In this document: in pieces, positions 20,435 through 44,299 of the stretch
Layout: every line of letters starts with the position of its first letter
How positions within the stretch are numbered: position 1 is the first letter of the stretch
Sequence record: OQ718158.1
Strand: one strand, 5' to 3'
DNA: 64,000 bases
Source of the DNA: Escherichia phage vB_Ec-M-J
Program-made: the position numbers and the translations under genes
The notes under the pieces: model-generated
What the model saw: the letters and a program-made list of their open reading frames with translations, nothing else
What the model was told of the DNA's origin: nothing
Database searches by the model: none

Positions 20435-20863
20435 ATGAATATCGAACAAACTATCCGTAACCACTCTTTCTTCGCTGCTGAAACTGGTCGTGTAATCGAG
20501 AGCGTCAAAATTGAAGAACTGATGATTAACGTTAAATATAAAGAACTGAATGATGAGATTAGCAGCACCATTTGTGCACTACGTGCTCCATTCCGTTCTG
20601 AAGCAGCTAAGAAACCTGCCTATGTACTGGCGATTGCATTGGGTTGTGTAGTGAAATTGGTCGTTGATGAAAATCAACTAAATATCAAAGTTGCTCCAAC
20701 CAACGATGAAGAAAACATCGACCTGAACTTTGAAGGTAATCTGGCTGAAGACGTATTCTTCCAACAATCACTGGTTTATGATTTCCGTACCGTAACTCAT
20801 GACCATATCAACTTTGTCAATGAGATGGTTGACATTGTAGCTGAATACGAAGCTTCCCTATAA
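20435..20863 (+). CDS. FQxS-motif family protein (142 aa)
   Basis: C-proximal NLAEDVFFQQSLVYD; SD aaggaa. Confidence 0.7.
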   Translation: MNIEQTIRNHSFFAAETGRVIESVKIEELMINVKYKELNDEISSTICALRAPFRSEAAKKPAYVLAIALGCVVKLVVDENQLNIKVAPTNDEENIDLNFEGNLAEDVFFQQSLVYDFRTVTHDHINFVNEMVDIVAEYEASL

Positions 20864-20875
20864 TTAGATTAACAA

Positions 20876-20899
20876 AAGCCTCCGTAATGGGGGCTTTTT
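20876..20899 (+). terminator. Rho-independent terminator
   Basis: gcctcc gtaat gggggc then ttttt. Confidence 0.6.
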
Positions 20900-20919
20900 C
20901 CAACATAAGGATATGTATA

Positions 20920-21471
20920 ATGATTGACCAAATTAAAATCCTAACTGAACAAATCACTGATTTTCTAGCAGATAAAGATGGATTCAGTACTGAAGTTAAA
21001 ATGCATGGTGTTAGTCTCGATGTAACTGCACCAAATGGCGAAACAACCAATTATGATATGTATGAAATCCTACTTTATACATTGGCTGTTCGTAAACTTG
21101 GTAGTGATATTGAACTAAACATTAACAAAACCGAGAACGGTGACCAAGTGTTTGCAATCAACACTGGTGCACAAATGGACGTAGTAGCTGAAATCAACAA
21201 GATCAACCAATCTTTTGTGGGTTTCAAGCATGATACAATCCAATCTGTGTTCCTGGGTAAACAAACCGGAAACAGCCACTGTCCTTATTGTGTAATGACA
21301 ACCTATAAGAATGGTAACTGGATGCGTCAGGATCTAGTACTTGCTGAAATGCTTTATGCAATCACACACGGCCTAGAACTTGAACTTGATGATAGCGTGT
21401 ACTGTTTCAAGAAAATCCGTAAACTTTCTGGTGATATACAAGCTCAATTAAAAGAATTAAATGATAAATAA
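20920..21471 (+). CDS. hypothetical protein (183 aa)
   Basis: ORF-track ATG 20887 lies inside terminator hairpin; ATG 20920 has SD taagga 9 nt upstream. Confidence 0.65.
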   Translation: MIDQIKILTEQITDFLADKDGFSTEVKMHGVSLDVTAPNGETTNYDMYEILLYTLAVRKLGSDIELNINKTENGDQVFAINTGAQMDVVAEINKINQSFVGFKHDTIQSVFLGKQTGNSHCPYCVMTTYKNGNWMRQDLVLAEMLYAITHGLELELDDSVYCFKKIRKLSGDIQAQLKELNDK

Positions 21472-21582
21472 TTATACCAGTAATGGTTAACATTATCATG
21501 TTACTTTCCTCCCTTACATAATAATGATGCGTTATTATTTTATTGTATTATTCCCCTTTTTGTACAAAATCTTTTTCGTACT

Positions 21583-21605
21583 GCCCCGACCTTCGGGGCA
21601 TTTTT
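21583..21605 (+). terminator. Rho-independent terminator
   Basis: gcccc...ggggc hairpin then ttttt. Confidence 0.65.
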
Positions 21606-21627
21606 CTTGTCTAAATTTTGAGGTTCT

Positions 21628-22023
21628 ATGAATAATACTATTGGTAGTACAATATCTAAACCACTCTCTTATTACCTTGAAAAATTCAGAAGTACAAATG
21701 GTAAAAAATTTAATGGTATATACCAATTCTCACATAAAGAATATATTACAGTTGATTGTTATTCAAATAAACTTATGTACGTAGATGATACTGAATACTG
21801 TATGAAATTGTCATTGGATGTAGAATTAGATAAGTTAACATTTATTGAATATACATCCAAAAGAACATCATTTCTTGGGAAATGTAATCGAAAAGTATAT
21901 AAAAATATTTCAATGTACTTAAATGAAGATTACCACTTCCAACAAACAACGATTGAAGATGTTCTATTCAGTACTGAAGAATTGAAAGAACTATATTATT
22001 GGTATAAGAAATTTACAACTTGA
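21628..22023 (+). CDS. FQxS-motif family protein (131 aa)
   Basis: NEDYHFQQTTIED. Confidence 0.7.
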   Translation: MNNTIGSTISKPLSYYLEKFRSTNGKKFNGIYQFSHKEYITVDCYSNKLMYVDDTEYCMKLSLDVELDKLTFIEYTSKRTSFLGKCNRKVYKNISMYLNEDYHFQQTTIEDVLFSTEELKELYYWYKKFTT

Positions 22024-22078
22024 CATTATCGTGGATTTATCCTACACTGTAAGATAATGATGAATAGAGGATAAATTT

Positions 22079-22489
22079 ATGAGTTTAGATTTACACAATG
22101 AACTAAAATATTATTTCGATTTGGATATATCACATTTGAACCAACACGTCAATTATATGACTAGTACTATTTGGTGGTCTGATGAGTTTGATGAACCAAA
22201 AATCCAACTTTGTGGTGATTTGTCCGTTTTGAGGTTGTATGCCCTTGATTCGGAAATGAATATCAAGATCACATACATACCATACACAAACAAACTTATT
22301 GTAAACACCCTAAACCCAGTTACAGTATTGAAAATTTCTGATTTGGACACGATACAGTCAGATGAATCACTATTCCAACGTTCTTTGATTGATGATATGG
22401 GTGGTATTTTATATGAAGATATTGTACAATTGAAGAAGATGTATAGTGAATTGTTAGAAATTAAAAACACAGTAATTGTGGGGAGTTGA
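22079..22489 (+). CDS. FQxS-motif family protein (136 aa)
   Basis: SDESLFQRSLIDD. Confidence 0.7.
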   Translation: MSLDLHNELKYYFDLDISHLNQHVNYMTSTIWWSDEFDEPKIQLCGDLSVLRLYALDSEMNIKITYIPYTNKLIVNTLNPVTVLKISDLDTIQSDESLFQRSLIDDMGGILYEDIVQLKKMYSELLEIKNTVIVGS

Positions 22490-22490
22490 T

Positions 22491-22895
22491 ATGGTAAGTT
22501 TACTTGATATTGATAATACCAGTCTAGTACTGGCAAAAAAAGGTGTAATTCCCAATTCTACAAAAATTGATTATGCAGTTATTGAAACAAATATTGGAAA
22601 TATCTGGTATGACTCCGAAAGGGATATTGTGATTAGCTGCGTAGACAGTGACCGTGCTGAGTGTTGTAGGGTTGGTCATGACGGGCAATTTATTTTCGAA
22701 TTCCGTTACTGGAAAGATGCTAAATTCCATCATGAGCATGTTTCAATTACAGGTGTGTATTGCACCGAAGAATCGTTCTTCATGGATAGTACTGTTAATG
22801 ATTTTGGTTCAGTTACATTTGAGTACTATAAAAAAGTATACAACGTATCCAGAGAAGTAATGCGAATCATCAGAAATGCTGAGGGCCAAGATTAA
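22491..22895 (+). CDS. FQxS-motif family protein, FM variant (134 aa)
   Basis: TEESFFMDSTVND; ORF-track TTG start replaced by ATG 22491 with SD ggggag. Confidence 0.7.
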   Translation: MVSLLDIDNTSLVLAKKGVIPNSTKIDYAVIETNIGNIWYDSERDIVISCVDSDRAECCRVGHDGQFIFEFRYWKDAKFHHEHVSITGVYCTEESFFMDSTVNDFGSVTFEYYKKVYNVSREVMRIIRNAEGQD

Positions 22896-22896
22896 C

Positions 22897-23271
22897 ATGA
22901 CTACTATATATGACATTCTAGGTGACTTGAATAAAAATATAGATAATGATTTTGTTATTGTTGGAACTACACAAAATATAATCCATCTTCCATTGGGTAC
23001 ACCAGATAGGTTAATTTTTAATATATACGGAAAAACACTGACATACCTACACAATGGTATGGTTATATTGGTACTTGATATTAAAGAAAATACAATACGA
23101 TATGCATATGACTTCAACGATTATTGGTCAAGAACCCATAGTATTGATATTGAGGAAGATGAACTATTTCAATTGTCGTTAATCGAGAAAAATGTAATAG
23201 GAGTTACCGAAATTGGCATTGTTAAAAAAGCATTAGAATATGTAAATAGCAAATTAAATGGTGAGCTATGA
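22897..23271 (+). CDS. FQxS-motif family protein (124 aa)
   Basis: EEDELFQLSLIEKN; start could instead be ATG 22876. Confidence 0.65.
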   Translation: MTTIYDILGDLNKNIDNDFVIVGTTQNIIHLPLGTPDRLIFNIYGKTLTYLHNGMVILVLDIKENTIRYAYDFNDYWSRTHSIDIEEDELFQLSLIEKNVIGVTEIGIVKKALEYVNSKLNGEL

Positions 23272-23723
23272 TGAAAATTGATGAAATAAAAAATCATTTT
23301 GAAATTGCATTGTCTTGTAAATTTGATGGCTCTTATGTTCCTGATCCAGAAGAGATAATTAGAATTTCCACATCGTTTTCGGAAGAGTACAATGTTCTTA
23401 TTGAGAAAACATATGACAGTACTGAACTCGCATTTTACAATAAGAATTCACGAACAACAACATTTATATTATTATATAACACAACATCGGATATAATAGA
23501 AATTATAACATGTAAAACAAGCAAAGATATACATTATGAGACTATCTCAAATGTGAGTTATTGCTCAACTGAAGAAGGATACTTTCAGGAATCTCTTATT
23601 AAAAATTTAACAGTTAGTTATTCTGATTTAAGCACTATAATCAATTGTGTTGAAAAGCTAAATGATTTCGTTCTATCTATGTTTGATATCACAGAGCAAA
23701 ACCCGAAGGTAATCAAATGCTAA
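23268..23723 (+). CDS. FQxS-motif family protein (151 aa)
   Basis: TEEGYFQESLIKN. Confidence 0.7.
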   Translation: MMKIDEIKNHFEIALSCKFDGSYVPDPEEIIRISTSFSEEYNVLIEKTYDSTELAFYNKNSRTTTFILLYNTTSDIIEIITCKTSKDIHYETISNVSYCSTEEGYFQESLIKNLTVSYSDLSTIINCVEKLNDFVLSMFDITEQNPKVIKC

Positions 23724-24172
23724 ATCCAGGACAGTTTTTTCATTTACTTGGTATTACACCTATACCGGATTTAATCAGTGAAGCGAATCAATATCGTGAT
23801 ATAGGAATTGTATCTATGGAATACGATTCACCTGACTTTAAATGTTACGTAACATATGATTTGGTAGCCTATGAGTCAGAAACTGAGATAAAAAAACCAT
23901 CATACATTTTTGTGTTCATATATAATGATTATAGTGGTGATCTACTCAATGATGTTCATATTGACACATTTGAAATATGTGATAATATTATAACAGATGA
24001 TTCATCATGTACATTTGATTTATCAGAAAACAGTACTGAAGAGGCACTTTTTCAGTTGAGTACTGTTAGTGACACTGTACTAACTCTTGATGACATTGAG
24101 AAATTTAAAGAACAGCTTGACGCAGTACGTGAGATGTTCTATAATCATTATCCAGAAATCGAGTTCAATTAA
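23717..24172 (+). CDS. FQxS-motif family protein (151 aa)
   Basis: TEEALFQLSTVSD. Confidence 0.7.
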   Translation: MLNPGQFFHLLGITPIPDLISEANQYRDIGIVSMEYDSPDFKCYVTYDLVAYESETEIKKPSYIFVFIYNDYSGDLLNDVHIDTFEICDNIITDDSSCTFDLSENSTEEALFQLSTVSDTVLTLDDIEKFKEQLDAVREMFYNHYPEIEFN

Positions 24173-24186
24173 CTAAAGGTATCAAA

Positions 24187-24447
24187 ATGACTAAAGTAGT
24201 TCGTAAACGCCACATGATGAACATGGATGAATTTCGCACCTTTGACAAATACCGTACTATGTTTCGTATGCTGTCACAGGGCCGTCCAATCGTCATTGTA
24301 ACGGAGAATTACATGTCACCTGAGATGATGTTCGGTAATTATGAAAAGGTCTTCATGTTGTACGTGAAGCGTGAATTGCTAACGATTAAGACCTTAGCTG
24401 AAGCTACAGATGAAGATATGGATGGTGATAATACATTTACCATGTGA
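24187..24447 (+). CDS. hypothetical protein (86 aa)
   Basis: ORF with SD. Confidence 0.6.
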   Translation: MTKVVRKRHMMNMDEFRTFDKYRTMFRMLSQGRPIVIVTENYMSPEMMFGNYEKVFMLYVKRELLTIKTLAEATDEDMDGDNTFTM

Positions 24448-24455
24448 GGAAATAT

Positions 24456-24533
24456 ATGGCAGAAAAACCAAAAGAACCATTGGACCGTGATGATGATTTT
24501 TACGACGAACGATATGGGGAATCAGATGAGTGA
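24456..24533 (+). CDS. very small acidic ORF (25 aa), not in ORF track
   Basis: ATG with SD tgagga 6 nt upstream; overlaps next start by 8 nt. Confidence 0.3.
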   Translation: MAEKPKEPLDRDDDFYDERYGESDE

Positions 24534-24777
24534 ACATCGTGCAGTACTTAAAAAGATTTTAAATGAACTTGGTGATGAGTTTAATGTTACTGAAGAAGAA
24601 TATCAATGTTGGAAGAAGGATTTTGAACTCCTTGCTGAGTATGATAAAGTCTTCAATATGATTGGTGTCATTAGCCAGTACTTACTTGGTGGTGGTCGAG
24701 CCAGTGCTTCAATTCTTGCATCTGCGATCATCTGTACTTCTCGATGGTGCGATGAAAAAAGTCTGGAAGATTTCTAA
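24526..24777 (+). CDS. hypothetical protein (83 aa)
   Basis: ORF-track GTG 24487 replaced by ATG 24526 (SD gggga). Confidence 0.55.
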   Translation: MSEHRAVLKKILNELGDEFNVTEEEYQCWKKDFELLAEYDKVFNMIGVISQYLLGGGRASASILASAIICTSRWCDEKSLEDF

Positions 24778-24829
24778 ATAAGATGCTATAATGTATTATA
24801 GTACCTTAACAATATAAAAAGGATTTTAT

Positions 24830-25690
24830 ATGAAACCTATCAGAGTACTGTCACTTTTTAATGGAATGAGCGTTGGATATATGGCATTGGCAGATGCAGG
24901 TATTCCAGTTGAAAAATATTACTCATCTGAAATTGACAAGTACGCAATTGCTGAATCTTCCGAGAATTTTCCTGATATTATCCAGTTAGGTGATGTGACT
25001 AAGTGGAAAGAATGGGATATTGAGTGGGATAAGATAGATTTACTCATGGGAGGATTCCCATGTCAAGCCTGGTCTGTTGCTGGTAAGCAAGGTGGCTTGA
25101 ATGATATACGTGGACAGTTATTTTTGGTTATGGTTGACATTTTTGAGCACATCAAAAGTGTAAATCCAAACTTGCAATTTCTGTTCGAGAATGTTAAAAT
25201 GAAGGAAGATTTCAAAGAATACATTAATAGTATTTTAGGAATCACACCAGTACTGATAAATTCCCAGCATTATACGCCTCACTTCAGGCAGAGATACTAC
25301 TGGTGCAGTACTGATAAGCTTTTTATACCACCTGCATTATCAAATGCCCCTAAACTTCAAGATATCATTGAAGATGGTTGGTACACTGACAGAACCGCTT
25401 CGTACTGTATAGATGCTAACTATTTTAAGGGTGGTGATTGTAACCAGTACTTTAATAAATCAAGACGACAGTTGGTGTTTCGTGACCCAACGATTAATCG
25501 TCAATATCTATTGGAGAATGGTAAAAGAAATATTGACTATAGACACTTAAGTGTAGTAGAATGTTGTAAATTACAGGGTATTCCTGTAGATTTCTTTAAA
25601 GTGTCTAGTAAGACACAAGCATACAAAATGCTTGGAAATGGATGGACTATGCCAGTTATATCACACTTACTAAGAGAGATATTCTTTTGA
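24830..25690 (+). CDS. DNA (cytosine-5) methyltransferase, 286 aa, orphan
   Basis: Motif I LFNGMSVG, motif IV GFPCQAWS, motif VI LFENVK, C-terminal KMLGNGWTMPV; no adjacent restriction gene. Confidence 0.85.
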   Translation: MKPIRVLSLFNGMSVGYMALADAGIPVEKYYSSEIDKYAIAESSENFPDIIQLGDVTKWKEWDIEWDKIDLLMGGFPCQAWSVAGKQGGLNDIRGQLFLVMVDIFEHIKSVNPNLQFLFENVKMKEDFKEYINSILGITPVLINSQHYTPHFRQRYYWCSTDKLFIPPALSNAPKLQDIIEDGWYTDRTASYCIDANYFKGGDCNQYFNKSRRQLVFRDPTINRQYLLENGKRNIDYRHLSVVECCKLQGIPVDFFKVSSKTQAYKMLGNGWTMPVISHLLREIFF

Positions 25691-25692
25691 AC

Positions 25693-26172
25693 ATGAAGAA
25701 CTACCCCACCTATACTGAACGTGTAATGAAATTTCAACGTCAGTCATCAAAGGAAGAATTAGAATTTAATTTGTACTATCCTAATATTGGTGATGAGGTA
25801 TTCTATTGTTCTCATACAAAGAATGGAACTTTACTTAAATCTGGTAAAGGTATTATTGTTGATATGATTAGCACTTTCAAAGGTAAACTTAATGTAATGT
25901 ACAAAGTACAAGATTCAAGTACTGAGTGCATTCATGAAGTGATGCATAATATACCTGCATATCCAAAGGATTTTGTTGAGCTAATATCTCGAAGGGAGAA
26001 ACCTATGTTTTATTGTGGTTATGACAAACTAACCAAACAAATTATTCCTAATACTATGGGAAAATTTAAAAGTGATGTTAAAACTGAACTTAATAAGAAA
26101 TTAGGTTCATCATGGGAAACTGAAAACGAATTCATCGAAATTCGTTTGATTGAAGTTACTATACTCGATTAA
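25693..26172 (+). CDS. hypothetical protein (159 aa)
   Basis: First ATG after MTase stop, in frame with ORF-track 25642. Confidence 0.6.
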   Translation: MKNYPTYTERVMKFQRQSSKEELEFNLYYPNIGDEVFYCSHTKNGTLLKSGKGIIVDMISTFKGKLNVMYKVQDSSTECIHEVMHNIPAYPKDFVELISRREKPMFYCGYDKLTKQIIPNTMGKFKSDVKTELNKKLGSSWETENEFIEIRLIEVTILD

Positions 26173-26178
26173 TTACAG

Positions 26179-26201
26179 ATCCACGCTATGCGTGGATTTT
26201 T
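26179..26201 (+). terminator. Rho-independent terminator
   Basis: atccacgc tat gcgtggat then tttt. Confidence 0.7.
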
Positions 26202-26216
26202 CATAGGTGCATATAT

Positions 26217-26729
26217 ATGACAGTTCCTTATGTTAAAATTATTAATAATATCCTTGATTCGTGGGAAGATGTTATTACTGGTAAAAAGAAACCAATGCCA
26301 GTATACGCACTAACCGGAAGACTACAATTCAGAATGTCAAACCAAACTGAAACTTTTAATAATCATGATGTTCACATTACTATAACACCTGTACGTATTG
26401 TAATTAAAAAAAATCAAGATGATGAATTGACATTATCTATTGGTAGTGATAAAATCATTTTAAGTAATTTATCCGAAGAAGAATTCTTTCAACGTAGTAC
26501 TATCATCGATATGAAAGATTTCACATATGAATCATTGGTTGAAGTCAATGCACGTTTCAACGATATTCAGGAACGATTGCGACCAATCCTCCGCAAAGAA
26601 GAAGAAGCATGGAATGAAAGTGTGAGAAAAATGCAAGAAATGTTGAAAGAAAATATTAACAATCTGGGTAAAGCTACAATGGAATTTGGTAAATCTTTTA
26701 AACTGAACTTTTCAAAGGATCGTAAATGA
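26217..26729 (+). CDS. FQxS-motif family protein (170 aa)
   Basis: SEEEFFQRSTIID. Confidence 0.7.
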   Translation: MTVPYVKIINNILDSWEDVITGKKKPMPVYALTGRLQFRMSNQTETFNNHDVHITITPVRIVIKKNQDDELTLSIGSDKIILSNLSEEEFFQRSTIIDMKDFTYESLVEVNARFNDIQERLRPILRKEEEAWNESVRKMQEMLKENINNLGKATMEFGKSFKLNFSKDRK

Positions 26730-27181
26730 AAATTGATAATTTGATTCATGTCTTAGGGACTTTACATAAAATATTATTACATCTTAACGAGATGAATAAA
26801 CTAGGTTATAATGTCCATAATGTATTTGAACCTACATTTAAATATAACTCAATCACTGGAGATGGTAATTACATAATCGAATATACATATGAAACCGATC
26901 CAGACTTCTATCCTCTTACGTTGCGAATTTATCCAACAAGTCCGATAGGCATTCACGATATATCATCAATTTCACTTGATCCAGATGGTGAAACGAGTAT
27001 TGAATACAATAATGATTCAAAACCAGAATTTTACATTGATGATATTAAAAAGTTGTTCAATGATGAATATGTTTTCCAACAAAGTACTGTGCATGATGTT
27101 GGTAGTACTAATGGGCAATTTTGGAATACATGTTATTATCATATGATTGAAATTTGTAAATTACTAAAAGGTGTTGAATAA
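26726..27181 (+). CDS. FQxS-motif family protein (151 aa)
   Basis: NDEYVFQQSTVHD. Confidence 0.7.
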   Translation: MKIDNLIHVLGTLHKILLHLNEMNKLGYNVHNVFEPTFKYNSITGDGNYIIEYTYETDPDFYPLTLRIYPTSPIGIHDISSISLDPDGETSIEYNNDSKPEFYIDDIKKLFNDEYVFQQSTVHDVGSTNGQFWNTCYYHMIEICKLLKGVE

Positions 27182-27564
27182 TGAAATACTGCATTGAAGT
27201 ACATTACACTACAGGTGATACTGAAAATTGTTATGACGTTCTTAATACAATTGATATTCAATGGTCTTCTAAAGAGGAAGCAGTTGCTGCTTTACAGTGC
27301 CTAAAAGAGCATTGGGTGTTTTATATGAAGCAAGATAATTGCTATACAAAAGAACACGAAACCATCGTCGAAAATGCTAAACAAAAAGAGTGGTTTGACC
27401 CAATATCACCAGCATATTCATTCTTGGTTAAAGTTGGTGATGTGACAGTTCCATTACGAACACCGTGGAACGGCTACTTTGAAACTCTTCATAATGCACG
27501 AGTTGTCGCTGTTGATAACCCTGAACAAATCGATTTCGATTCATTGGACTGGAAAAAACTATGA
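27181..27564 (+). CDS. hypothetical protein (127 aa)
   Basis: ATGA-coupled ORF; no family motif. Confidence 0.65.
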   Translation: MKYCIEVHYTTGDTENCYDVLNTIDIQWSSKEEAVAALQCLKEHWVFYMKQDNCYTKEHETIVENAKQKEWFDPISPAYSFLVKVGDVTVPLRTPWNGYFETLHNARVVAVDNPEQIDFDSLDWKKL

Positions 27565-28004
27565 CAGTACTGCACCGATTGAAGAAGGTTAAGCATCCAG
27601 TTGTATATGAGGACTGGAAACGACAGAAGTTGCTGGGTGATTTTTATTACCCAAAATCTAAAGTTCTTGCGAATTCAAGATGTACATATTGCACACATAA
27701 TCATAAAGATACAGTATTTGTTGAAATGGGTTTCCATCCATCAAACACAATGTTCACTACTAACCAAACGTTTTACAAATTTCATATACAAAAAGATTCA
27801 TTTACTGTTATGATTATAAAACATTTAGTTGAAGATCTGGCATTCAGTGAAGAACGAGTACCTTTATCATTAGTGGATATTCCTTATAATAATTTAGAGG
27901 AAATGTACTTCCAACAGTTGACAGTACAAGAAAACTTTGGTATGATAGGACTTCAAGAGTTAGAGATGATTAAGCAAATTCGTGATATCTACTTTAAGGA
28001 GTAA
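27561..28004 (+). CDS. FQxS-motif family protein (147 aa)
   Basis: LEEMYFQQLTVQE. Confidence 0.7.
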   Translation: MTVLHRLKKVKHPVVYEDWKRQKLLGDFYYPKSKVLANSRCTYCTHNHKDTVFVEMGFHPSNTMFTTNQTFYKFHIQKDSFTVMIIKHLVEDLAFSEERVPLSLVDIPYNNLEEMYFQQLTVQENFGMIGLQELEMIKQIRDIYFKE

Positions 28005-28006
28005 CT

Positions 28007-28150
28007 ATGCCAGTACGTAACAGTACTTCACGCTTTACGCTTCAACAGAAAGCAGATCTTTTGAATATGGCAAACAAAGATTCTAATTTTCACTATCTAG
28101 TACTCGGTGGTTCAGTTGAAAAGATTGACCTACGTGAGTGTATGAAATAA
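28007..28150 (+). CDS. small ORF (47 aa), not in ORF track
   Basis: ATG with strong SD aaggag 7 nt upstream. Confidence 0.45.
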   Translation: MPVRNSTSRFTLQQKADLLNMANKDSNFHYLVLGGSVEKIDLRECMK

Positions 28151-28166
28151 CAAAAAGGGGACTAAA

Positions 28167-28337: not shown

Positions 28338-28480
28338 TGGTGTATACTAATATTTTTACTGGTATTATGCGTAAGTTTGTTAATGGTATTGGATATGTAT
28401 CCAATGACAACGGTAGTACATGGGTAAAAAATAATACGTCAGAATCTTTAGTGAAAAGTCTTCCGTATTATAAAGCTTGA
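28337..28480 (+). CDS. small ORF (47 aa), not in ORF track
   Basis: Start overlaps upstream stop (TAATG). Confidence 0.3.
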   Translation: MVYTNIFTGIMRKFVNGIGYVSNDNGSTWVKNNTSESLVKSLPYYKA

Positions 28481-28505
28481 CACATGAAAATGGAGTATGT
28501 ATAAT
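28477..28505 (+). promoter_or_regulatory. sigma70-type promoter (TTGACA-17-TATAAT)
   Basis: -10 flanked by inverted repeat ggagtat/atactcc. Confidence 0.55.
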
Positions 28506-28537
28506 ACTCCTATATTAATCAAATGAGGATATACGAA

Positions 28538-29294: not shown

Positions 29295-29296
29295 TT

Positions 29297-30127: not shown

Positions 30128-30414
30128 AAATTTTAGAAGTCTTACTTGAAAAGGATGCATCTGGTACACTTTATGTTGGTAATGAGTTTAGTCCTGATCC
30201 AATTGATATGATGCAGCGTATTCAAACACTGACCCAATCAATTTCAGTTAAACAACCTTTCCTAAAAGAATTGGAAATTCACTGCGATAAAGATATGGAA
30301 CAACATGATAATGTTATTTCTGATATCAAAAGTCTATTGACAAAGAATGGATATGTGGAATATAATCCTTCTATCGTAATCGTTATCCCTGACTTTATGA
30401 AAGGAACATTGTAA
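30124..30414 (+). CDS. hypothetical protein (96 aa)
   Basis: ATGA-coupled. Confidence 0.65.
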   Translation: MKILEVLLEKDASGTLYVGNEFSPDPIDMMQRIQTLTQSISVKQPFLKELEIHCDKDMEQHDNVISDIKSLLTKNGYVEYNPSIVIVIPDFMKGTL

Positions 30415-32398: not shown

Positions 32399-32791
32399 AT
32401 GACTGAATCAGAACTACATGAAATGATAGATTTCATTTATGAAATGATACAAGATAAAAATAACATCAATACAATTATTTCTGGTCCAAGACAAATTGGT
32501 AATCAAATGACATATTCTTTATCTTTATGGATAAAACAGAACTACAAAGTTGATTGTTTGTATTTCCGTCCTGATATTGATGCTTATTATTTTGTCAATC
32601 ATGATGCATTAATGAAACCAAATAAGCGTCCAGTTGATGATACCTTTGTGACACACCCATTTTACCTGGCTGATTCCGAAGAAGATGAGTTTCAAAAGAA
32701 CACAACGTTAAGCCCAGGTGAAATTTGCATCCCTTACACACTAAAAGATAAAATGATTTACATCACAGAAGTTATGAAAACATGCTGGTAA
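32399..32791 (+). CDS. FQxS-like family protein (130 aa), divergent
   Basis: SEEDEFQKNTTLS. Confidence 0.65.
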   Translation: MTESELHEMIDFIYEMIQDKNNINTIISGPRQIGNQMTYSLSLWIKQNYKVDCLYFRPDIDAYYFVNHDALMKPNKRPVDDTFVTHPFYLADSEEDEFQKNTTLSPGEICIPYTLKDKMIYITEVMKTCW

Positions 32792-32839: not shown

Positions 32840-33058
32840 ATGAAATTTATTAATTTTGATATTTCTAAGGTCAAAGAATTATTTGTAAGAAATGCAGTTT
32901 ATGATATCATGTTACATAACGGTACTGTACAAGAAGATGTTGTATTGTTTTCGTTTGATGGTGAAAATCTCGAAACTATATATAAATTCAGCAACTTAGA
33001 TGGTGACTTTTGGGAAACCAGTGCTGTTAAAATGTATAGAATTAAAAAGGAGCAGTAA
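32840..33058 (+). CDS. hypothetical protein (72 aa)
   Basis: ATG 32840 with SD ggagga. Confidence 0.55.
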   Translation: MKFINFDISKVKELFVRNAVYDIMLHNGTVQEDVVLFSFDGENLETIYKFSNLDGDFWETSAVKMYRIKKEQ

Positions 33059-33059
33059 T

Positions 33060-33548
33060 ATGCCAATTCGTGGTGTACCAGAACCATTAATGGAAGTTAT
33101 TAAGCATGTTCGCATTGGAGATCGAGAAGTTAATCTTCGCCGTAATAACATTTTTTACTTTAAAACTTCAGAAATGAGTTCTGTACAGATTGTCATTGGT
33201 ACATCTATTAAGATTACTCGTGTACTTGATGGTAGTACTGACTTCGTTGAATATAATGTACTTACTAATAAAGTAACGCATATATATAAATGGAGTGGGT
33301 ATAAAACTATTAAGTATGAATTTGACTTAGCTAGAACTGAAGAAGAACGATTTATGCTGAGTACTATCAATCCAGCAAACTATCCTGACCTTGATGCATT
33401 TTTGCTAATTTTAAAATTGTATAATGAAGCAAATCAGAAAGCCAAAGATTATGATAGAATCATGTATGAACGCCGAAAAGAACGTGCACAAAAAAGTTAT
33501 GATCTGTATGATAGCCCATACGTGAAATATAGTAAGGGGTCGAAATGA
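33060..33548 (+). CDS. FQxS-motif family protein, FM variant (162 aa)
   Basis: TEEERFMLSTINP; ATG 33060 with SD aaaaggag. Confidence 0.65.
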   Translation: MPIRGVPEPLMEVIKHVRIGDREVNLRRNNIFYFKTSEMSSVQIVIGTSIKITRVLDGSTDFVEYNVLTNKVTHIYKWSGYKTIKYEFDLARTEEERFMLSTINPANYPDLDAFLLILKLYNEANQKAKDYDRIMYERRKERAQKSYDLYDSPYVKYSKGSK

Positions 33549-33949
33549 ATAAAGAAGTTCAAATTATCATAACTCCACCTATACAAAGTCTGGATGTATC
33601 CATTAGTGATTTTTTGGAAAAATACTATGAATGGTTTAATGAAGATTCAGTAATTTATAACCATTCATTACCTGATGGTTTCGTTGAGCTTATTGAATTA
33701 AATGCCAAATCACTATACTTCTGTGTTGAATACAATGATTATATGACAGATGAAGCATATCGTTTTCGTTGTACATTGTATCCTAACCATTTTTCCATTG
33801 GTTATAAAGACTATCAGTACTGCACCACAAACTATAGTGTAGAGGAAGAATTTCAGTACAATTTACTTTATCCTGATTTGGATTATACGATTGCAGTACT
33901 GTTGACTAAAATCATGGATTTTTATAAAGATAAATATAATGCAGCCTAA
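33545..33949 (+). CDS. FQxS-like family protein (134 aa), divergent
   Basis: VEEEFQYNLLYPD. Confidence 0.65.
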   Translation: MNKEVQIIITPPIQSLDVSISDFLEKYYEWFNEDSVIYNHSLPDGFVELIELNAKSLYFCVEYNDYMTDEAYRFRCTLYPNHFSIGYKDYQYCTTNYSVEEEFQYNLLYPDLDYTIAVLLTKIMDFYKDKYNAA

Positions 33950-34124
33950 GACATTTGATGAGTGGTTTAATCTACACTATAATATAAATGCAGCAGATAT
34001 ATACTATTTTAAGCTTGAATTGTATATATCATTGCGTAACCCAATTGAGTACTATAACAACATTATCAATTGTGATGATTTTGGTACATATTTTAGTATA
34101 GCAGTCATGGACAAAATAAGATGA
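33939..34124 (+). CDS. hypothetical protein (61 aa)
   Basis: ORF overlapping upstream by 11 nt. Confidence 0.5.
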   Translation: MQPKTFDEWFNLHYNINAADIYYFKLELYISLRNPIEYYNNIINCDDFGTYFSIAVMDKIR

Positions 34125-34291
34125 CACACAAAGAATGGTTAGATGAACTAAAATTTAAACATAATCCTTTTGGTTTTGGTATACGCCAAGGTCATTATGA
34201 TGTGTTAAAAGATAAACAACTTTTCAAATCATTTGTACTTGATGAGGATAGTAATCACTGGTACATCTATGAGCTTGCAATTAGGAAATAG
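34121..34291 (+). CDS. small protein of the MTHxEW mini-family (56 aa), not in ORF track
   Basis: N-terminus MTHKEWLDELKF resembles the three tandem genes at 35620-36106; ATGA overlap. Confidence 0.45.
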   Translation: MTHKEWLDELKFKHNPFGFGIRQGHYDVLKDKQLFKSFVLDEDSNHWYIYELAIRK

Positions 34292-34301
34292 AAGATATAG
34301 T

Positions 34302-34651
<350 letters not shown>

Positions 34652-34664
34652 CGAGGAATCCAAA

Positions 34665-34862
34665 GTGACTAAAGCAGAACTTGTAGCATTATTGGAATCA
34701 TATCCCGATGATGCATGTATTGAAGTTGTTCATAGTGCGAGACATTTTGACATTGAAGATGTAGTACGTTATAATGATAAAGGTGTACTCATCATGGAAC
34801 TATGTATTGGTGAAATGAAAACTGTACCCGAATCAGAAAAACGTAAAAATAGTAAACCGTAA
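34665..34862 (+). CDS. hypothetical protein (65 aa), GTG start
   Basis: GTG preceded by SD acgaggaa. Confidence 0.5.
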   Translation: MTKAELVALLESYPDDACIEVVHSARHFDIEDVVRYNDKGVLIMELCIGEMKTVPESEKRKNSKP

Positions 34863-34872
34863 GGAAAATAAA

Positions 34873-35091
34873 ATGGAATCTACTCTATTAGAAGTTATTA
34901 ACTCATTAAACGCTGGCGACAATGTTCAAGTACTCCTACAGGGATACCGTGTAAAAGGTTCAGTAGTTTTAGTTAATGACACCACTGTTGTTGTAACTGA
35001 AACTAACCCGTTTGACAGTAATGAACTTGCTAATATCCATATTGATATTAAAAGTATTATTGGTGTTGGTGTAACTAAACCACAAGAATAA
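34873..35091 (+). CDS. hypothetical protein (72 aa)
   Basis: ATG with SD aaggaaaa. Confidence 0.55.
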   Translation: MESTLLEVINSLNAGDNVQVLLQGYRVKGSVVLVNDTTVVVTETNPFDSNELANIHIDIKSIIGVGVTKPQE

Positions 35092-35112
35092 CAATTGTTA
35101 TTGGGGATTACT

Positions 35113-35379
35113 ATGCATTTTGAAAAATTCAATACAAATCGTAACACACGCATTGACGTTCTTTATGAAACACAAGACTCAATAAGCATTCGTACACGTA
35201 GTGGTGATGTATATCATGACTGTACTATTGGTTGGGAACAGGGAAGAACACGTAGTGCAGAATTCGATAACTATCGCTTCTACCAAGGGGACACCACAAT
35301 CTGGCCTGAAGACGTAGAAGATATTGCGTTTGAAGATGAACATAAAGATGAATTTATAAAATTTAATCCCGAATCATAA
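35113..35379 (+). CDS. hypothetical protein (88 aa)
   Basis: ORF-track TTG 35095; first ATG 35113. Confidence 0.55.
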   Translation: MHFEKFNTNRNTRIDVLYETQDSISIRTRSGDVYHDCTIGWEQGRTRSAEFDNYRFYQGDTTIWPEDVEDIAFEDEHKDEFIKFNPES

Positions 35380-35396
35380 ATATTGGAACAGACTAT

Positions 35397-35512
<116 letters not shown>

Positions 35513-35516
35513 AAAT

Positions 35517-35602
<86 letters not shown>

Positions 35603-35619
35603 CAATTAAAGGTTAAACC

Positions 35620-35780
<161 letters not shown>

Positions 35781-35784
<4 letters not shown>

Positions 35785-35941
35785 CACATGAAGAATGGAT
35801 GAATGACATTAATTTTAGATATTCGGGTATCGGTAAATGGCTAAAGTATCATTGGGAATTCATTTCAGAGCCACATCTGTATGATAAACTTATCAACGAT
35901 CCAGCATATGAAATGTACTTAATTGAACTACTGGTACGAAT

Positions 35942-35945
<4 letters not shown>
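35781..35945 (+). CDS. small protein, MTHEEW mini-family copy 2 (54 aa)
   Basis: MTHEEWMNDINFRYSGIGKW...; near-identical 5' 50 nt to copy 1. Confidence 0.5.
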
Positions 35946-36113
<168 letters not shown>

Positions 36114-36114
36114 G

Positions 36115-36536
<422 letters not shown>

Positions 36537-36540
<4 letters not shown>

Positions 36541-36565
36541 CTAAATAGTTCAGTACTGATATAAT
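36537..36565 (+). promoter_or_regulatory. sigma70-type promoter, repeated cassette copy 2
   Basis: Identical 22-nt ttgactaaatagttcagtactg then aTATAAT; -35 overlaps stop codon. Confidence 0.6.
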
Positions 36566-36571
36566 GAATTC

Positions 36572-36912
36572 CACAATCAGACGTATATGGTGTAAGTTAC
36601 GTCGATGTAATCCAGAACAAGATCTCTGGTACTCTAGGAAGTGGTGAATGTTAACCTAGACGGGTTTGATAATTGGACGATAGGCAATTATTACTTGACT
36701 AGCAGGTTTAAACTAGAGGTGACAGTCCTTTACCAAACTGGAAAACCGGATGGACTTTTATTTAAAAGGGTAAGGCGTGGAAATATGTTTACAGTAGTTG
36801 CTTTTAGTAGCCTGTACGCCCCACGTCAAGGTAGCCGAAAGGCAAGTTAAAACGGGTGGTTATAAAGCTGAATTAACAGCGGCGTTTAAAAGCGTCACCA
36901 TCCATTTTTTTT
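36572..36912 (+). ncRNA. candidate structured non-coding RNA (~340 nt), unknown class
   Basis: No well-initiated ORF; locally elevated GC; several hairpins; bounded by promoter copy 2 and T8 run at 36905-36912. Confidence 0.3.
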
Positions 36913-36928
36913 AATTAAAGTTGGTGAT

Positions 36929-37568
<640 letters not shown>

Positions 37569-37572
37569 CAAA

Positions 37573-37730
<158 letters not shown>

Positions 37731-37755
37731 CAAAAAAAAACAATGAGAGGTATAA

Positions 37756-38253
<498 letters not shown>

Positions 38254-38254
38254 T

Positions 38255-38286
<32 letters not shown>

Positions 38287-38330
38287 GATTCCCGATTCAG
38301 TAGTTTTAAAGCAGACCCGTATGTGCCTAT

Positions 38331-38422
<92 letters not shown>

Positions 38423-38441
38423 AGAGGTACTTCGAGTATGC

Positions 38442-38493
<52 letters not shown>

Positions 38494-38582
38494 TCAGTAC
38501 TACTTTTTAATTGACATATCATTGGATGAGGTGTAATATGGTTCAAGAAGAAAACTGGGGTTTTTAACACAAAGAGGCCAAT

Positions 38583-38629
<47 letters not shown>

Positions 38630-38654
38630 TGCTGCACCTATGCCTACTCTTGGC

Positions 38655-38725
<71 letters not shown>

Positions 38726-38726
38726 A

Positions 38727-38766
<40 letters not shown>

Positions 38767-38894
38767 TCAGGTCGATTAGTTAAAAGAGTATAACACGGAC
38801 CTTGTAAGTCTGAATAATCAGTGCAATTCTGATATTGACCTCAAAAATGATATTTTTCTTACATATAAATACTCCATAATATATGGAGAACTAT

Positions 38895-39290
38895 ATGAAA
38901 GAAAAACGTTATTGTACATGTTGTAAAATTGAATTGGTTCGAAAGGGCCAAACAAAATATTGTAGTGTTGCATGTCAACAAGAGCTACAATATCAACAGA
39001 AAGTTGATAAATGGCTTAACGGTGAACATCCTGGATATAAAGGTATTACCATACAGTTATGTCCATTTGTGAGAAGATATCTACATGAAACACGCGGAAC
39101 TGCATGTGAAGAATGTGGATGGGATAAACGTCATCCAATAGATGGTGCAGTACTGACAGAAGTTGAGCACATTGATGGTGATGCTACAAATAATGACCTA
39201 CCAAATTTAAAAATCCTTTGCCCTAATTGTCATTCGATGACACCAACATTCAGAGCAAGGAACAAGAACTCCGCAAGGAATCGTAAATAA
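38895..39290 (+). CDS. HNH homing-type endonuclease (131 aa)
   Basis: N-terminal Cys-rich zinc ribbon; HNH core EVEHIDGDATNNDLPNLKILCPNCH; ATG 38895 with SD ggag. Confidence 0.8.
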   Translation: MKEKRYCTCCKIELVRKGQTKYCSVACQQELQYQQKVDKWLNGEHPGYKGITIQLCPFVRRYLHETRGTACEECGWDKRHPIDGAVLTEVEHIDGDATNNDLPNLKILCPNCHSMTPTFRARNKNSARNRK

Positions 39291-39306
39291 TTTTTTAAGG
39301 TACAAT

Positions 39307-39726
39307 ATGACATACAACATTGTTAAAATGGTGAACTACGTATTAAAAAACAACGCATGGTCACTGCATGATGTACAATTAGAAGATATTGGTGAAGTTA
39401 GAGTTTTTTGCTATGATGACGATTTGAACGAAACCACAGATTTGAGTAAATGTTTTAATATTTTTCTTGGTTATGAAATCGATAATCATTTTTATTCATT
39501 TGATGTGTATGTTGAACGAGTTAAAATCAGAATTTCTAATGTAAATAGTGATTATTTTGACACTATTATGATTGAATTGAATTTTGACGATATTGATACT
39601 GAAGAAAAATTCTTTCAGTACTGTCTCGTAAACGATCTAAATGGATTGACATTTGAGGACATTAAAGCTATACTTATAGTTCAAAGATTAATTCCAGAAG
39701 AGGTTATAAATCCCTTTAATGACTAG
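39307..39726 (+). CDS. FQxS-motif family protein (139 aa)
   Basis: TEEKFFQYCLVND. Confidence 0.7.
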   Translation: MTYNIVKMVNYVLKNNAWSLHDVQLEDIGEVRVFCYDDDLNETTDLSKCFNIFLGYEIDNHFYSFDVYVERVKIRISNVNSDYFDTIMIELNFDDIDTEEKFFQYCLVNDLNGLTFEDIKAILIVQRLIPEEVINPFND

Positions 39727-40078
39727 TTTAATAACTCGTATAATGCAAGATGTTCGTAAGAATCTTCATACTGGTAATTTTGATGATCCTAACATAAAAA
39801 TATTATGTTATGATGTATTCACACTGGTACACCCATCTGAATCTAATAATATATACATAGCATATACTTCTCCTAATATTTTGTATCAATTTGACTTATA
39901 TAGTACAATGGCTAAGATAACATTAGATGTTTCTAAGGAGCCATTTTTTATAGCAGTACGTGATTTTGAGTACACAGAAGAGTCATTATTCCAGTACTCA
40001 ATGATAAATGACATTGGTGACTTGACATTAGAAGAGATAAATGTTATAGTTGGTATGTGTCGTTTGATTAATCCATAA
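39719..40078 (+). CDS. FQxS-motif family protein (119 aa)
   Basis: TEESLFQYSMIND. Confidence 0.7.
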   Translation: MTSLITRIMQDVRKNLHTGNFDDPNIKILCYDVFTLVHPSESNNIYIAYTSPNILYQFDLYSTMAKITLDVSKEPFFIAVRDFEYTEESLFQYSMINDIGDLTLEEINVIVGMCRLINP

Positions 40079-40091
40079 CTCGGAGCTTAAT

Positions 40092-40283
40092 ATGTTTTTG
40101 AATTTGTTATGCTTATTTGGTCGTACATTGGTTCTTGCTATTATTCATACACCTGGTATTCGTAATTATGTTTCTTATGAATTTAAGAAAAATTACCACA
40201 ACAATACTGAAGTTCGTGCAACTAAGATGTGCAAAGACTTCAATGGAGATGTTCCACCATTCAAGAAGTACGAGGATGAATAA
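40092..40283 (+). CDS. small hydrophobic protein (63 aa)
   Basis: ATG with SD cggagc; N-terminal hydrophobic segment. Confidence 0.45.
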   Translation: MFLNLLCLFGRTLVLAIIHTPGIRNYVSYEFKKNYHNNTEVRATKMCKDFNGDVPPFKKYEDE

Positions 40284-40567
40284 TGGAATTTATTGTTGCA
40301 CCTGATGAACTAAAAACATTCACGTTCCGAGACAATAACAATTATCCTTATACAAATCATTCATTGAATTCATTGCATGTTATTTCAATCATTGCATCTG
40401 AATACAGAGACAATCCATGTATTGATTTTAAAACCACTGATGGTGAATATACATGGGTAGTTCCGAACGATAAATACAGTTATCAGGGTGCAGTAGAGAT
40501 CCGCGACTCGATTCTAAAGCAAATCGAAGATGGACATACTCATCCTAAACTAAACATTCAGTACTGA
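40283..40567 (+). CDS. hypothetical protein (94 aa)
   Basis: Start overlaps upstream stop. Confidence 0.6.
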   Translation: MEFIVAPDELKTFTFRDNNNYPYTNHSLNSLHVISIIASEYRDNPCIDFKTTDGEYTWVVPNDKYSYQGAVEIRDSILKQIEDGHTHPKLNIQY

Positions 40568-40758
40568 AATCGTTTAACCGGATAGCTTCTAGTCGGTACT
40601 GAATTCCTCCTTTTGTCTAGAAGCTATCACTCTTTTAAAGTATAATGATATCACCCTCATGGTTCATTATATTCGTTACCCTCTAACAGTATCTTTTTAT
40701 TCCTCTTTGATACTGTATTTTAGAAGTTGACATTTTTACTTCTACTGTGTTATACTTA

Positions 40759-40789
40759 AGGCTGATTCATTATGAATCGGCCTTTTTTC
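40759..40789 (+). terminator. Rho-independent terminator / leader hairpin
   Basis: aggctgattcat t atgaatcggcct then tttttt; a TTGACA-18-TATACT promoter-like pair (40727-40756) sits immediately upstream. Confidence 0.55.
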
Positions 40790-40806
40790 TTGTGGGGATT
40801 AATGTA

Positions 40807-41223
40807 ATGAATAAAGAAGTTATTAGTTTAATGGATGAGTATATCAACCAAACATATCGTTTTATATTTTTTAATGCATTTGAGTCCAGGACAACGTATC
40901 ATTCTGGTGAATATGAGATAATAACTGGATCATTTCTTAACGGATACATGGAGTTTTTAGAACAAAGCGATAATGTTTTCATTTCCATATCTGAAAAACA
41001 TGGTGATGATTATGTTATTGATGTATGGCCTAATAAAGTAGAGATTGACACTACAAAGAAAATTGTAATTGATGTGGACGAATCATTGTATGATTTAACT
41101 GAAGATATGTATATGCAACTAAATTTCGTATACGATCTAACTAACATAAGTTATTCTAATCTAAGTAAATTATTTTATATTTGTGGTGTACTACATAAAA
41201 ACGTACAACAAAATAAAGGATAA
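40807..41223 (+). CDS. FQxS-like family protein, divergent (138 aa)
   Basis: TEDMYMQLNFVYD; ORF-track GTG 40747 runs through the terminator hairpin; first ATG is 40807. Confidence 0.6.
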   Translation: MNKEVISLMDEYINQTYRFIFFNAFESRTTYHSGEYEIITGSFLNGYMEFLEQSDNVFISISEKHGDDYVIDVWPNKVEIDTTKKIVIDVDESLYDLTEDMYMQLNFVYDLTNISYSNLSKLFYICGVLHKNVQQNKG

Positions 41224-41295
41224 ACATTTAAATGTTGACAATTGACAACATAAATGGTATCTTTGAAATTGCCAGAAACCTACGAGGAATATGAT

Positions 41296-41703
41296 ATGGT
41301 CAAAATTTTAAGTGACAATGCGGTTGATATTGTCATTGATGTACTTGAAAACAGTAATACATTTGAGAAGAAACACAGTACTGTATACTTCGGTAAAGAT
41401 TGTTGGCTGAACTATACATCTGATAGTTCATTTATAATTCGTGTTGAGAAGGGTGATATTGGATTAACGATACATGCTTCCTATACTAAAACAATCACTG
41501 TTATTGCCAACAAGCCAAGTACTTCTGATTTCTGGGATAGAATTGATGATTGTGACCATTTCATGTCAACATTCTATAAAACAGAAGAAGAACATTTCAT
41601 GGATAGTACTGTCAAAGAATTAGCTATTCCATTTAAACTTATGAAAGCAGCAAGAGATTTTATTTTAAAATACAAAAAAATAGGAGTTGATGATGCAATT
41701 TAA
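41296..41703 (+). CDS. FQxS-motif family protein, FM variant (135 aa)
   Basis: TEEEHFMDSTVKE; ATG 41296 with SD cgaggaa (alternative ATG 41254). Confidence 0.65.
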   Translation: MVKILSDNAVDIVIDVLENSNTFEKKHSTVYFGKDCWLNYTSDSSFIIRVEKGDIGLTIHASYTKTITVIANKPSTSDFWDRIDDCDHFMSTFYKTEEEHFMDSTVKELAIPFKLMKAARDFILKYKKIGVDDAI

Positions 41704-44296: not shown

Positions 44297-44299
44297 TTG

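Follow-up and report, generated by a model that had tools for sequence, protein, structure and literature searches.

A family of small proteins with a conserved C-proximal motif, expanded in jumbo phages of the RaK2/121Q type

Introduction

Escherichia phage vB_Ec-M-J (sequence record OQ718158.1) carries, between positions 20,435 and 41,703 of the 64,000-nucleotide stretch of its DNA analysed here (the window), numerous short open reading frames (ORFs) whose predicted products share a short motif toward the C-terminal end and otherwise show little resemblance to one another. A preliminary description of this DNA, made from the sequence alone, had proposed that such ORFs form an expanded paralogous family. 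The locus raises the questions of whether these ORFs are indeed one family, how far that family extends beyond this phage, and what so many versions of one small protein could do in the infected cell. The window is gene-dense, with nearly all genes on the plus strand, and has a G+C content of 35%.

In a survey of 224 jumbo phages by Iyer et al. (2021), a zinc ribbon present in ~35 copies in phage G was called an 'unprecedented' expansion (PMC7824862). Paralogues make up nearly 10% of the gene products of RaK2 according to the paper on that phage, and 22 paralogous ORFs are listed in the CBB paper (PMC5259590).

Results

The motif-bearing ORFs are one family

The motif-bearing ORFs do form a paralogous family, with small acidic products and conservation at the protein level. 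The strict pattern E..[FY][QM].S[TLMIV][VI] was found in 13 of the 155 plus-strand ORFs of the window and in 0 of the 92 minus-strand ORFs, and in 2000 residue shuffles it occurred by chance in a mean of 0.024 ORFs (maximum 1). An iterative hidden Markov model (HMM) search seeded with the 13 strict-pattern ORFs converged after three rounds and yielded 19 ORFs, all on the plus strand, the weakest of which scored E 7e-16 versus E 0.037 for the next ORF. The family consensus is [TS]-E-E-x-[YFL]-F-[QM]-x-S-[TL]-[VI]-x-[DNE].

The window total is 19 firm and two degenerate members. The preliminary description had counted 'at least 21' ORFs; its outlier at 17.4 kb (17403-17987, STETFQYS) is supported by no profile. 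The lengths of ~125-195 amino acids (aa) given there were adjusted to 119-190 aa, and the distance of the motif from the C-terminus, given as 30-45 residues, to 32-83 residues, mostly 32-53.

Positional homology of the motif holds in a multiple alignment of 128 sequences, in which the motif columns contain F in 126 of 128 sequences, the two E residues in 118 and 114, Q in 112 (with M in a further 16) and S in 115, at a mean column identity over the alignment of ~9%. The codons beneath the motif differ between the copies in the window, as had been noted: Phe is encoded by TTC and TTT (8 and 10 times), Gln by CAA and CAG (11 and 5), and Ser by AGY (10) as well as TCN (5). Since Ser uses both of its codon sets, the motif is conserved at the level of the protein.

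The divergence claimed for the N-terminal two thirds was borne out, in that the adjacent pair 39307/39719 (members are named by their start positions) is the only one in the window giving a full-length BLASTP alignment (32% identity). The N-terminal parts, too, are homologous across the family, weakly but collectively: in 8 of 19 leave-one-out trials with a profile of the N-terminal part alone, the left-out member came out on top among 53.

Members in the window

All members lie on the plus strand. The first group opens with 20435..20863 (142 aa, motif AEDVFFQQSLVYD, HMM E 6e-25) and 21628..22023 (131 aa, NEDYHFQQTTIED, E 3e-26), which have ratios of nonsynonymous to synonymous substitution rates (dN/dS) of 0.08 and 0.16, respectively, against phage ELP-22. 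It continues with 22079..22489 (136 aa, SDESLFQRSLIDD, E 4e-22); with 22476..22895 (TEESFFMDSTVND, E 5e-22), read here from a TTG at 22476 and annotated from an ATG at 22491 in phage BF17 (MW822008.1), which is 99.4% identical to the window over 16.5 kb; and with 22876..23271 (EEDELFQLSLIEK, E 4e-22 after iteration; ATG 22897 in BF17). Two members of 151 aa follow, namely 23268..23723 (TEEGYFQESLIKN, E 3e-27; alternative start 23271) and 23717..24172 (TEEALFQLSTVSD), the latter with a net charge of -24 and an isoelectric point (pI) of 4.05.

The second group comprises 26217..26729 (170 aa, SEEEFFQRSTIID, E 8e-26), which has a long charged C-terminal extension, 26726..27181 (151 aa, NDEYVFQQSTVHD, E 4e-27) and 27561..28004 (147 aa, LEEMYFQQLTVQE, E 3e-27 after iteration). 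The basic member 33000..33548 (pI 9.4, TEEERFMLSTINP, E 2e-23), for which ATG 33060 is the likely true start, is flanked by the two degenerate ORFs. One of them, 33545..33949 (134 aa, SVEEEFQYNLLYP), is a probable degenerate member, aligned over its full length by wider profiles at E 3-5e-4, and the other, 32399..32791 (130 aa, SEEDEFQKNTTLSP), is a possible and marginal one, reached by wider profiles at E 0.02-0.06 only.

Next are 36175..36540 (121 aa, TEEEYFQTSTVQE, E 4e-22) and 36929..37300 (123 aa, DAEDEFQKSTVYE, E 7e-16), the latter being the weakest firm member. The last group consists of 39307..39726 (139 aa, TEEKFFQYCLVND, E 6e-30), 39719..40078 (119 aa, TEESLFQYSMIND), 40747..41223 (TEDMYMQLNFVYD, E 5e-24 after iteration; ATG 40807 in BF17) and 41254..41703 (149 aa, TEEEHFMDSTVKE, E 2e-22). 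Two members stand apart, 55831..56346 (171 aa, TEESVFQQSLIHN, E 1e-20) and the basic 61743..62315 (190 aa, pI 9.3, NEEEYFQESIVTE, E 3e-25).

No name for the family was found in the databases and jumbo-phage papers searched

Pfam searched with the 128 members and NCBIfam with 19 gave nothing recurrent. The Pfam model RecQ-1-like_HTH matched one of the 128 aligned sequences (E 3.7e-12), which was not among ten longer or motif-less sequences that were rescanned and may carry a domain fusion. The family profile had no match among PDB sequences. In PHROGs, each of ten window members gave a full-length match to a group of its own at E 1e-51 to 1e-111 (phrog_30548, 24027, 24941, 17453, 38573, 33518, 28118, 22160, 23322 and 34619); the family is split there into separate groups of 'unknown function' joined by weak cross-hits only, and its unity is not recognised. 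In BF17, every family ORF is annotated as 'hypothetical protein'. The family is mentioned neither in the survey of Iyer et al. (PMC7824862) nor in the RaK2, CBB and phAPEC6 papers. These results suggest that it has not been described before, as the preliminary description had also stated.

The family is confined to one clade of jumbo phages

The 20-42 kb stretch matches 68 phage records, the best all being Escherichia jumbo phages with genomes of 347-386 kb (genus Asteriusvirus; 121Q, SP27, slurp01). BF17 was scanned with the iterated HMM from 1 to 100 kb and from 260.5 to 360 kb. This half or so of the genome contains 59 members, which corresponds to ~9% of the 663 annotated BF17 genes; the motif is clear in ~45 of the 59, and because some of the others lack a recognisable motif, the count carries a risk of iterative drift. 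A second, denser cluster at 27-68 kb of BF17, ~90 kb beyond the window, accounts for 39 of the 59, and is also present at 165-175 kb of 121Q. Members of this cluster have longer tails after the motif, and its motif variants include WDSEEYYFQQSTVYDD, which marks a sub-type, and STEEGYFQGSTVYEQ. Thus, the expansion seen in the preliminary description is real, and its size had been underestimated.

A profile of 19 members, run against 1.84 billion representative proteins, gave 104 matches at E <=0.001. All are 62-217 aa long and are matched over nearly their full length, and almost all have [TS]EEx[YFL]F[QM]xS[TL][VI]x[DNE][FLM] at the same place. The motif is the same in phages that infect Escherichia, Klebsiella, Cronobacter, Erwinia and Pectobacterium. 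When 2.9 million IMG/VR contigs were scanned with a degenerate DNA pattern encoding TEExxFQxS(AGY)T[VI], 21 stretches matched, located on nine contigs that are all 345-378 kb in size; one of these, of 345,809 bp, contains at least 25 members in the fragments examined. A word-indexed profile search with the 128-sequence alignment gave 10 proteins. A tblastn search with the HMM consensus peptide returned 19 records, all at E >=0.1, and is too insensitive for copy counts.

In 100,044 bacterial and archaeal genomes the same DNA pattern had 26 matches, one of which is family-like. The other 25 were rejected as unrelated proteins, e.g. a ~1137-aa protein of Bacteroidota and a ~293-aa protein of Lentisphaerae. 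The remaining match is a family fragment of 61-81 aa (TEEMYFQLSTITEHIDVII, HMM E 9e-9) in Pantoea rwandensis LMG 26275 (NZ_MLFR01000023.1), whose closest relative in the window is member 61743. It adjoins genes for an HNH endonuclease, an IS3-type transposase and a RelA/SpoT-domain protein, between arsC and an acrB-like gene. Apart from this fragment, the family is restricted to the RaK2/121Q-type clade of jumbo phages.

The copies are old and individually maintained

In ELP-22 (~88% DNA identity), orthologs were found for all 17 members located between 20 and 42 kb, and dN/dS was 0.08-0.57 over all ortholog pairs. The family genes are under purifying selection and, given these values in every pair and the retention of the orthologs, are real genes with distinct, retained roles. 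Pooled dN/dS (ω) was lowest for the motif (0.095) and reached 0.26 in the tail and 0.35 in the N-terminal part, compared with 0.165 for neighbouring non-members; the copies are individually maintained and evolve about twice as fast as their neighbours.

The 345,809-bp contig encodes full-length orthologs of several members (43% identity over 145 aa for that of 20435), and these orthologs resemble the members more than any paralog within the genome does. Hence the expansion is old and predates the split of these genera.

The motif is predicted to form a helix inside a single domain

Structures of two members that are 20% identical, 23717 (the first model) and 39719 (the second), were predicted with AlphaFold2 on the 128-sequence alignment. 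The models have mean predicted local distance difference test scores (pLDDT) of 80.5 and 77.4, respectively, and a predicted template modelling (TM) score of 0.74 each, and they show the same topology. In both, the chain folds into a single domain that starts with a helix and a β-meander of 5-6 strands; a helix of 10 residues follows, which a loop connects to a long helix at the C-terminus. The 10-residue helix (residues 108-117 in 23717 and 87-96 in 39719) comprises exactly EExxFQxS[TL][VI], with pLDDT of 82-90. The conserved T probably caps this helix, and a [TS]-h-x-[ED] element after the loop may cap the last one. As judged by a helical wheel drawn from the columns of the alignment, the variable motif positions are 3, 7 and 11 only, and thus the motif helix appears to be buried or located at an interface.

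An architecture of a variable domain followed by a conserved tail, as first proposed, is not what the models show, since they place the motif helix inside the domain. The models, the near-full-length profile matches and the N-terminal-profile trials together indicate that the motif is the best-kept element of one fold and not a separable tail.

The median pI is 4.6 for the window members and 4.9 for the 59 BF17 members. A pI below 5.5 was calculated for 80% of the latter and for 48% of other small ORFs (Mann-Whitney p 1e-5). In only 2 of the 59 could a hydrophobic window be taken for a membrane segment, and neither case is convincing.

The closest known fold is that of the MAM33/p32 (gC1qBP)/T. 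brucei p22 family (PF02330), αA-β1..β7-αB-αC, to which the α-β-α-α arrangement of the models bears a weak similarity. Like the phage proteins, p32/MAM33 proteins are strongly acidic. They are obligate homotrimers of doughnut shape. The MAM33 Pfam profile matched none of 10 and then none of 128 members, and an hhalign comparison of the family profile with human p32 (approximate sequence) gave a probability of 0.1%. In the searchable literature no paper was found that ties MAM33 to phages. The p32-like topology is thus a lead suggested by the models and would not by itself imply membership in MAM33. A structure search of BFVD returned uncharacterised paralogs from GAP32, RaK2 and fHe-Yen9-03, and low-TM matches to coat proteins of single-stranded RNA phages.

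Promoter-like sites and absence from one virion proteome

Perfect σ70 consensus sites (TTGACA-N17/18-TATAAT) were found by a promoter scan on the plus strand at 28477-28505 (TTGACA-17-TATAAT), 30337-30366, 34602-34630 and 34747-34775; by a rough hand calculation, far fewer than one such perfect site would be expected by chance. Eight further sites matching at 11 of 12 positions accompany them in the region from 19 to 39 kb, and all of these sites lie on the coding strand. An 11/12 site at 36116-36143 ends 32 nt upstream of member 36175, and a 10/12 site at 22020-22048 lies just upstream of member 22079 (both plus strand). The second cluster has similar sites, including a perfect one just upstream of the member at 44909. 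Because four perfect and eight 11/12 sites all lie on the plus strand, it is suggested that the host σ70 polymerase may transcribe the region. The authors of the CBB paper suspect that an RpoD-promoter-rich region of that phage is an early, host-takeover region (PMC5259590), and this region would correspond to the window. No transcriptome for the clade was found in the searchable literature. A gene for a phage-encoded σ70-family factor with regions 2 and 3 is located downstream of the family clusters, at 50232-51200.

The virion proteome of phAPEC6 (62 proteins) was mapped to the window by gene order and protein size, with gp158c-160c corresponding to 380-6292, gp149c/150c to 9853-11096 and gp078c/gp077 to 43440-45457. 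The proteome has no entry in gp079-148, which covers 11.1-43.4 kb of the window, or in gp348-548, and the two ranges together span both family clusters. By this mapping, neither cluster contributed a detected protein to the particles.

Other genes of the window and of BF17

In the same mapping, 43440-44255 (plus strand) corresponds to virion protein gp078c and 44300-45457 (minus strand) to gp077. The latter is the only long minus-strand gene in the window and is 33% identical over 123 aa to a BF17 'structural protein' (84349-84726). Its kinship with an RCC1-like paralog array was considered and found unsupported, as it matches that other structural protein. The array itself, ~17 paralogous genes of ~380 codons each on the minus strand at 338-357 kb of BF17, some annotated as RCC1-like, appears by annotation and position to encode the 'DNA condensation' virion proteins of phAPEC6 (gp003-010, gp549, gp551). 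The label 'virion structural protein' in ELP-22 belongs to 19905-20240, which is a non-member.

A C5 cytosine DNA methyltransferase is encoded at 24830-25690, between two family clusters, and a TelA-like protein at 13146-14363 (E 2e-37). The 'peptidase' label that BF17 gives to 14446-15135 is probably a mis-annotation; in Pfam the product matches an Rv2179c-like 3'-5' exoribonuclease domain (E 7e-9). An HNH endonuclease ORF at 38883-39290 adjoins a tRNA-Thr gene and is probably mobile, as it has no ortholog in ELP-22. Around it the tRNA complement differs between the window (5 tRNAs), BF17 and ELP-22 (7, including two tRNA-Gly). Near the tRNA genes are two tandem mini-ORFs of ~54 aa (35620-35784 and 35781-35945, 70% identical) and a weaker related pair (34121-34291 and 35942-36106), which constitute a separate small paralog set.

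Outside the window, BF17 encodes a ClpP protease homologue (80975-81670, Pfam E 4e-41). Its 1.7-27 kb region consists of more than 80 consecutive ORFs of ~40-120 aa on one strand, with spacers of ~50-100 bp before ~21 kb; later ORFs abut or overlap.

Discussion

The reading that we tentatively favour, and hold at somewhat less than an even chance, is that the family constitutes an early repertoire of host- or defence-binding proteins built on a conserved scaffold with a variable surface. On this reading its members, which are specific to jumbo phages of the RaK2/121Q type, are small (~120-190 aa), mostly acidic and soluble proteins of the cytoplasm. Each is predicted to fold as one α+β domain, in which a first helix and an antiparallel β-meander of 5-7 strands are followed by the motif helix (T as N-cap followed by EExxFQxS[TL][VI]), a loop (xD[FLM]G) and a long C-terminal helix. 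The helix-loop-helix would be the invariant core of the scaffold or an oligomer interface, whereas the region of the N-terminal helix and the β-sheet has diverged almost beyond recognition between paralogs. The genes would be transcribed early by the host σ70 RNA polymerase. With its own variable surface, each paralog could then capture a different target in the infected cell and inactivate or divert it; host proteins, proteins that bind nucleic acids and defence factors are candidate targets. The whole would amount to a repertoire of stoichiometric binders on one scaffold, comparable to acidic multi-ligand binders such as p32/MAM33 or to DNA-mimic anti-restriction proteins.

Several observations weigh against such a repertoire. 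No positive selection was detected, pairwise ω being below 1 everywhere in the comparisons with ELP-22. The promoter scan gave no overall excess over shuffled sequence, so that the top-scoring sites alone stand out. About 12% of the BF17 members are basic, a poor fit to a simple acidic-mimic model. The two E residues, Q and S of the motif are conserved to 92%, 89%, 88% and 90%, respectively, which is more than a structural core usually needs; near-invariant polar residues point to a shared function that may reside in the motif itself. Finally, what the analysis establishes is the family and its motif, the predicted fold, the restriction to one clade, purifying selection and the absence from one virion proteome, whereas the early timing, the binding role and the variety of targets are inferred.

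The main rival explanation, to which we give about half the weight of the binder repertoire, takes up the shared partner of the preliminary description and sees in the family adaptors, similar to the F-box or PRANC adaptors of eukaryotes and poxviruses, in which the helix-loop-helix docks to one conserved machine and the variable part selects cargo. The partner might be the host RNA polymerase, the ribosome, a chaperone, an AAA+ protease (ClpXP or Lon) or a phage protein. The strict conservation of the polar residues favours a shared partner; on a helical wheel these residues (E, E, Q, S, D) occupy several faces of the motif helix, so that only a narrow variable stripe is left. The motif is unchanged across phages of five host genera and has the low ω given above, and the phage encodes a ClpP homologue. 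Both models, however, build the motif helix into the domain and not into a separate module, and a fusion of such a module to other domains is seen neither among the 104 representatives, which are all single-domain proteins of 62-217 aa, nor as a recurrent Pfam domain in the 128 sequences. A more specific version, somewhat less probable, is that the ~60 paralogs are a substrate-adaptor library whose T-EE-x-x-FQ-x-S helix-loop-helix would dock to one conserved cellular or phage machine, for example an AAA+ protease working with the phage ClpP, or RNA polymerase, and thereby divert a wide range of host proteins to it.

It is improbable, at perhaps half the chance of adaptors in general, that the proteins self-assemble or hetero-oligomerise through the conserved helices as a common interface, giving combinatorial assemblies with a structural or sequestering role. 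Trimerisation of p32, conservation of the motif helix on nearly all sides, and the apparent co-expression of many paralogs from the same operons (gene overlaps, shared promoters) are consistent with this; the p32 similarity is weak, however, and nothing indicates assembly. It would be more surprising still if the members were small enzymes in which E-E...Q..S...D would act in catalysis or hold a metal while substrate choice would fall to the variable part, a reading for which the conservation of the polar residues far above the rest of the protein can be cited.

The least probable explanation, marginally behind the enzymes, is that the virion packages the members as internal or ejected proteins, as T4 does with its internal proteins, and that the motif directs them to the capsid or marks them for processing by a protease; it was rejected because, even though phAPEC6 capsids hold an inner body (PMC7247149), none of the members maps to the 62 virion proteins. 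A capsid-targeting sequence of the T4 type would be N-terminal, whereas the N-termini are not conserved here and the sole shared element lies toward the C-terminal end. Some copies do resemble TEV/3C protease sites (ExxYxQ|S/G, LFQ|), e.g. EEGYFQGS in the second cluster. The motif is, however, predicted to be helical and packed, not extended, and the residues past the would-be scissile bond are equally conserved, to six residues beyond Q. Apart from ClpP and a T4-type prohead protease no protease was seen, the product of 14446-15135 being exoribonuclease-like, and no chymotrypsin-like protease of the 3C/NIa type was seen in the window or in the annotated BF17 regions (~183 kb of BF17 lay outside this scope). 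The reading of the motif as a protease site was rejected because of the predicted helix, the conservation beyond Q and the exoribonuclease-like nature of the 14446-15135 product.

Approximately 59 of the 663 annotated genes of BF17 belong to one unnamed family that has no relatives beyond the jumbo-phage clade, and that may account for much of the paralogue figure reported for RaK2. A signature of 13 residues has stayed nearly unchanged in proteins whose remaining sequence diverged almost beyond recognition. The family offers a handle on the 'dark matter' of jumbo-phage genomes, with one scaffold, many natural variants and obvious residues for point mutation (EE, F, Q, S). Should the copies prove to be diversified binders or adaptors, they would list targets in the host or its defences and also provide a natural scaffold for binders. 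Should the motif dock to a single machine, that machine would be a new hub of host takeover in Enterobacterales.

The zinc-ribbon family of Bacillus phage G (~35 copies) likewise consists of dozens of small-domain paralogs in one jumbo-phage lineage, but it has another fold; the family in BF17 has no zinc ribbon and more copies (~59 or more). Acidic DNA-mimic and anti-restriction proteins (Ocr, ArdA, Arn) are small and very acidic, as is member 23717. They act early against host factors. Unlike the phage family, with ~60 members of which ~12% are basic, they are single genes, and they show no match to it in sequence or fold. Large clustered sets of divergent paralogs are also formed by the ankyrin/PRANC proteins of poxviruses and the multigene families MGF360/505 of African swine fever virus, which have no homology to the family described here. 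Those proteins target their hosts and have in common a short conserved element near the C-terminus. In families of the PRANC type this element is a separable adaptor module with Skp1 as the partner, whereas the jumbo-phage motif is, according to the models, part of the core of the domain. Should the adaptor library nevertheless prove true, it would give bacterial viruses an equivalent of the F-box/PRANC adaptor repertoires found in eukaryotes and poxviruses.

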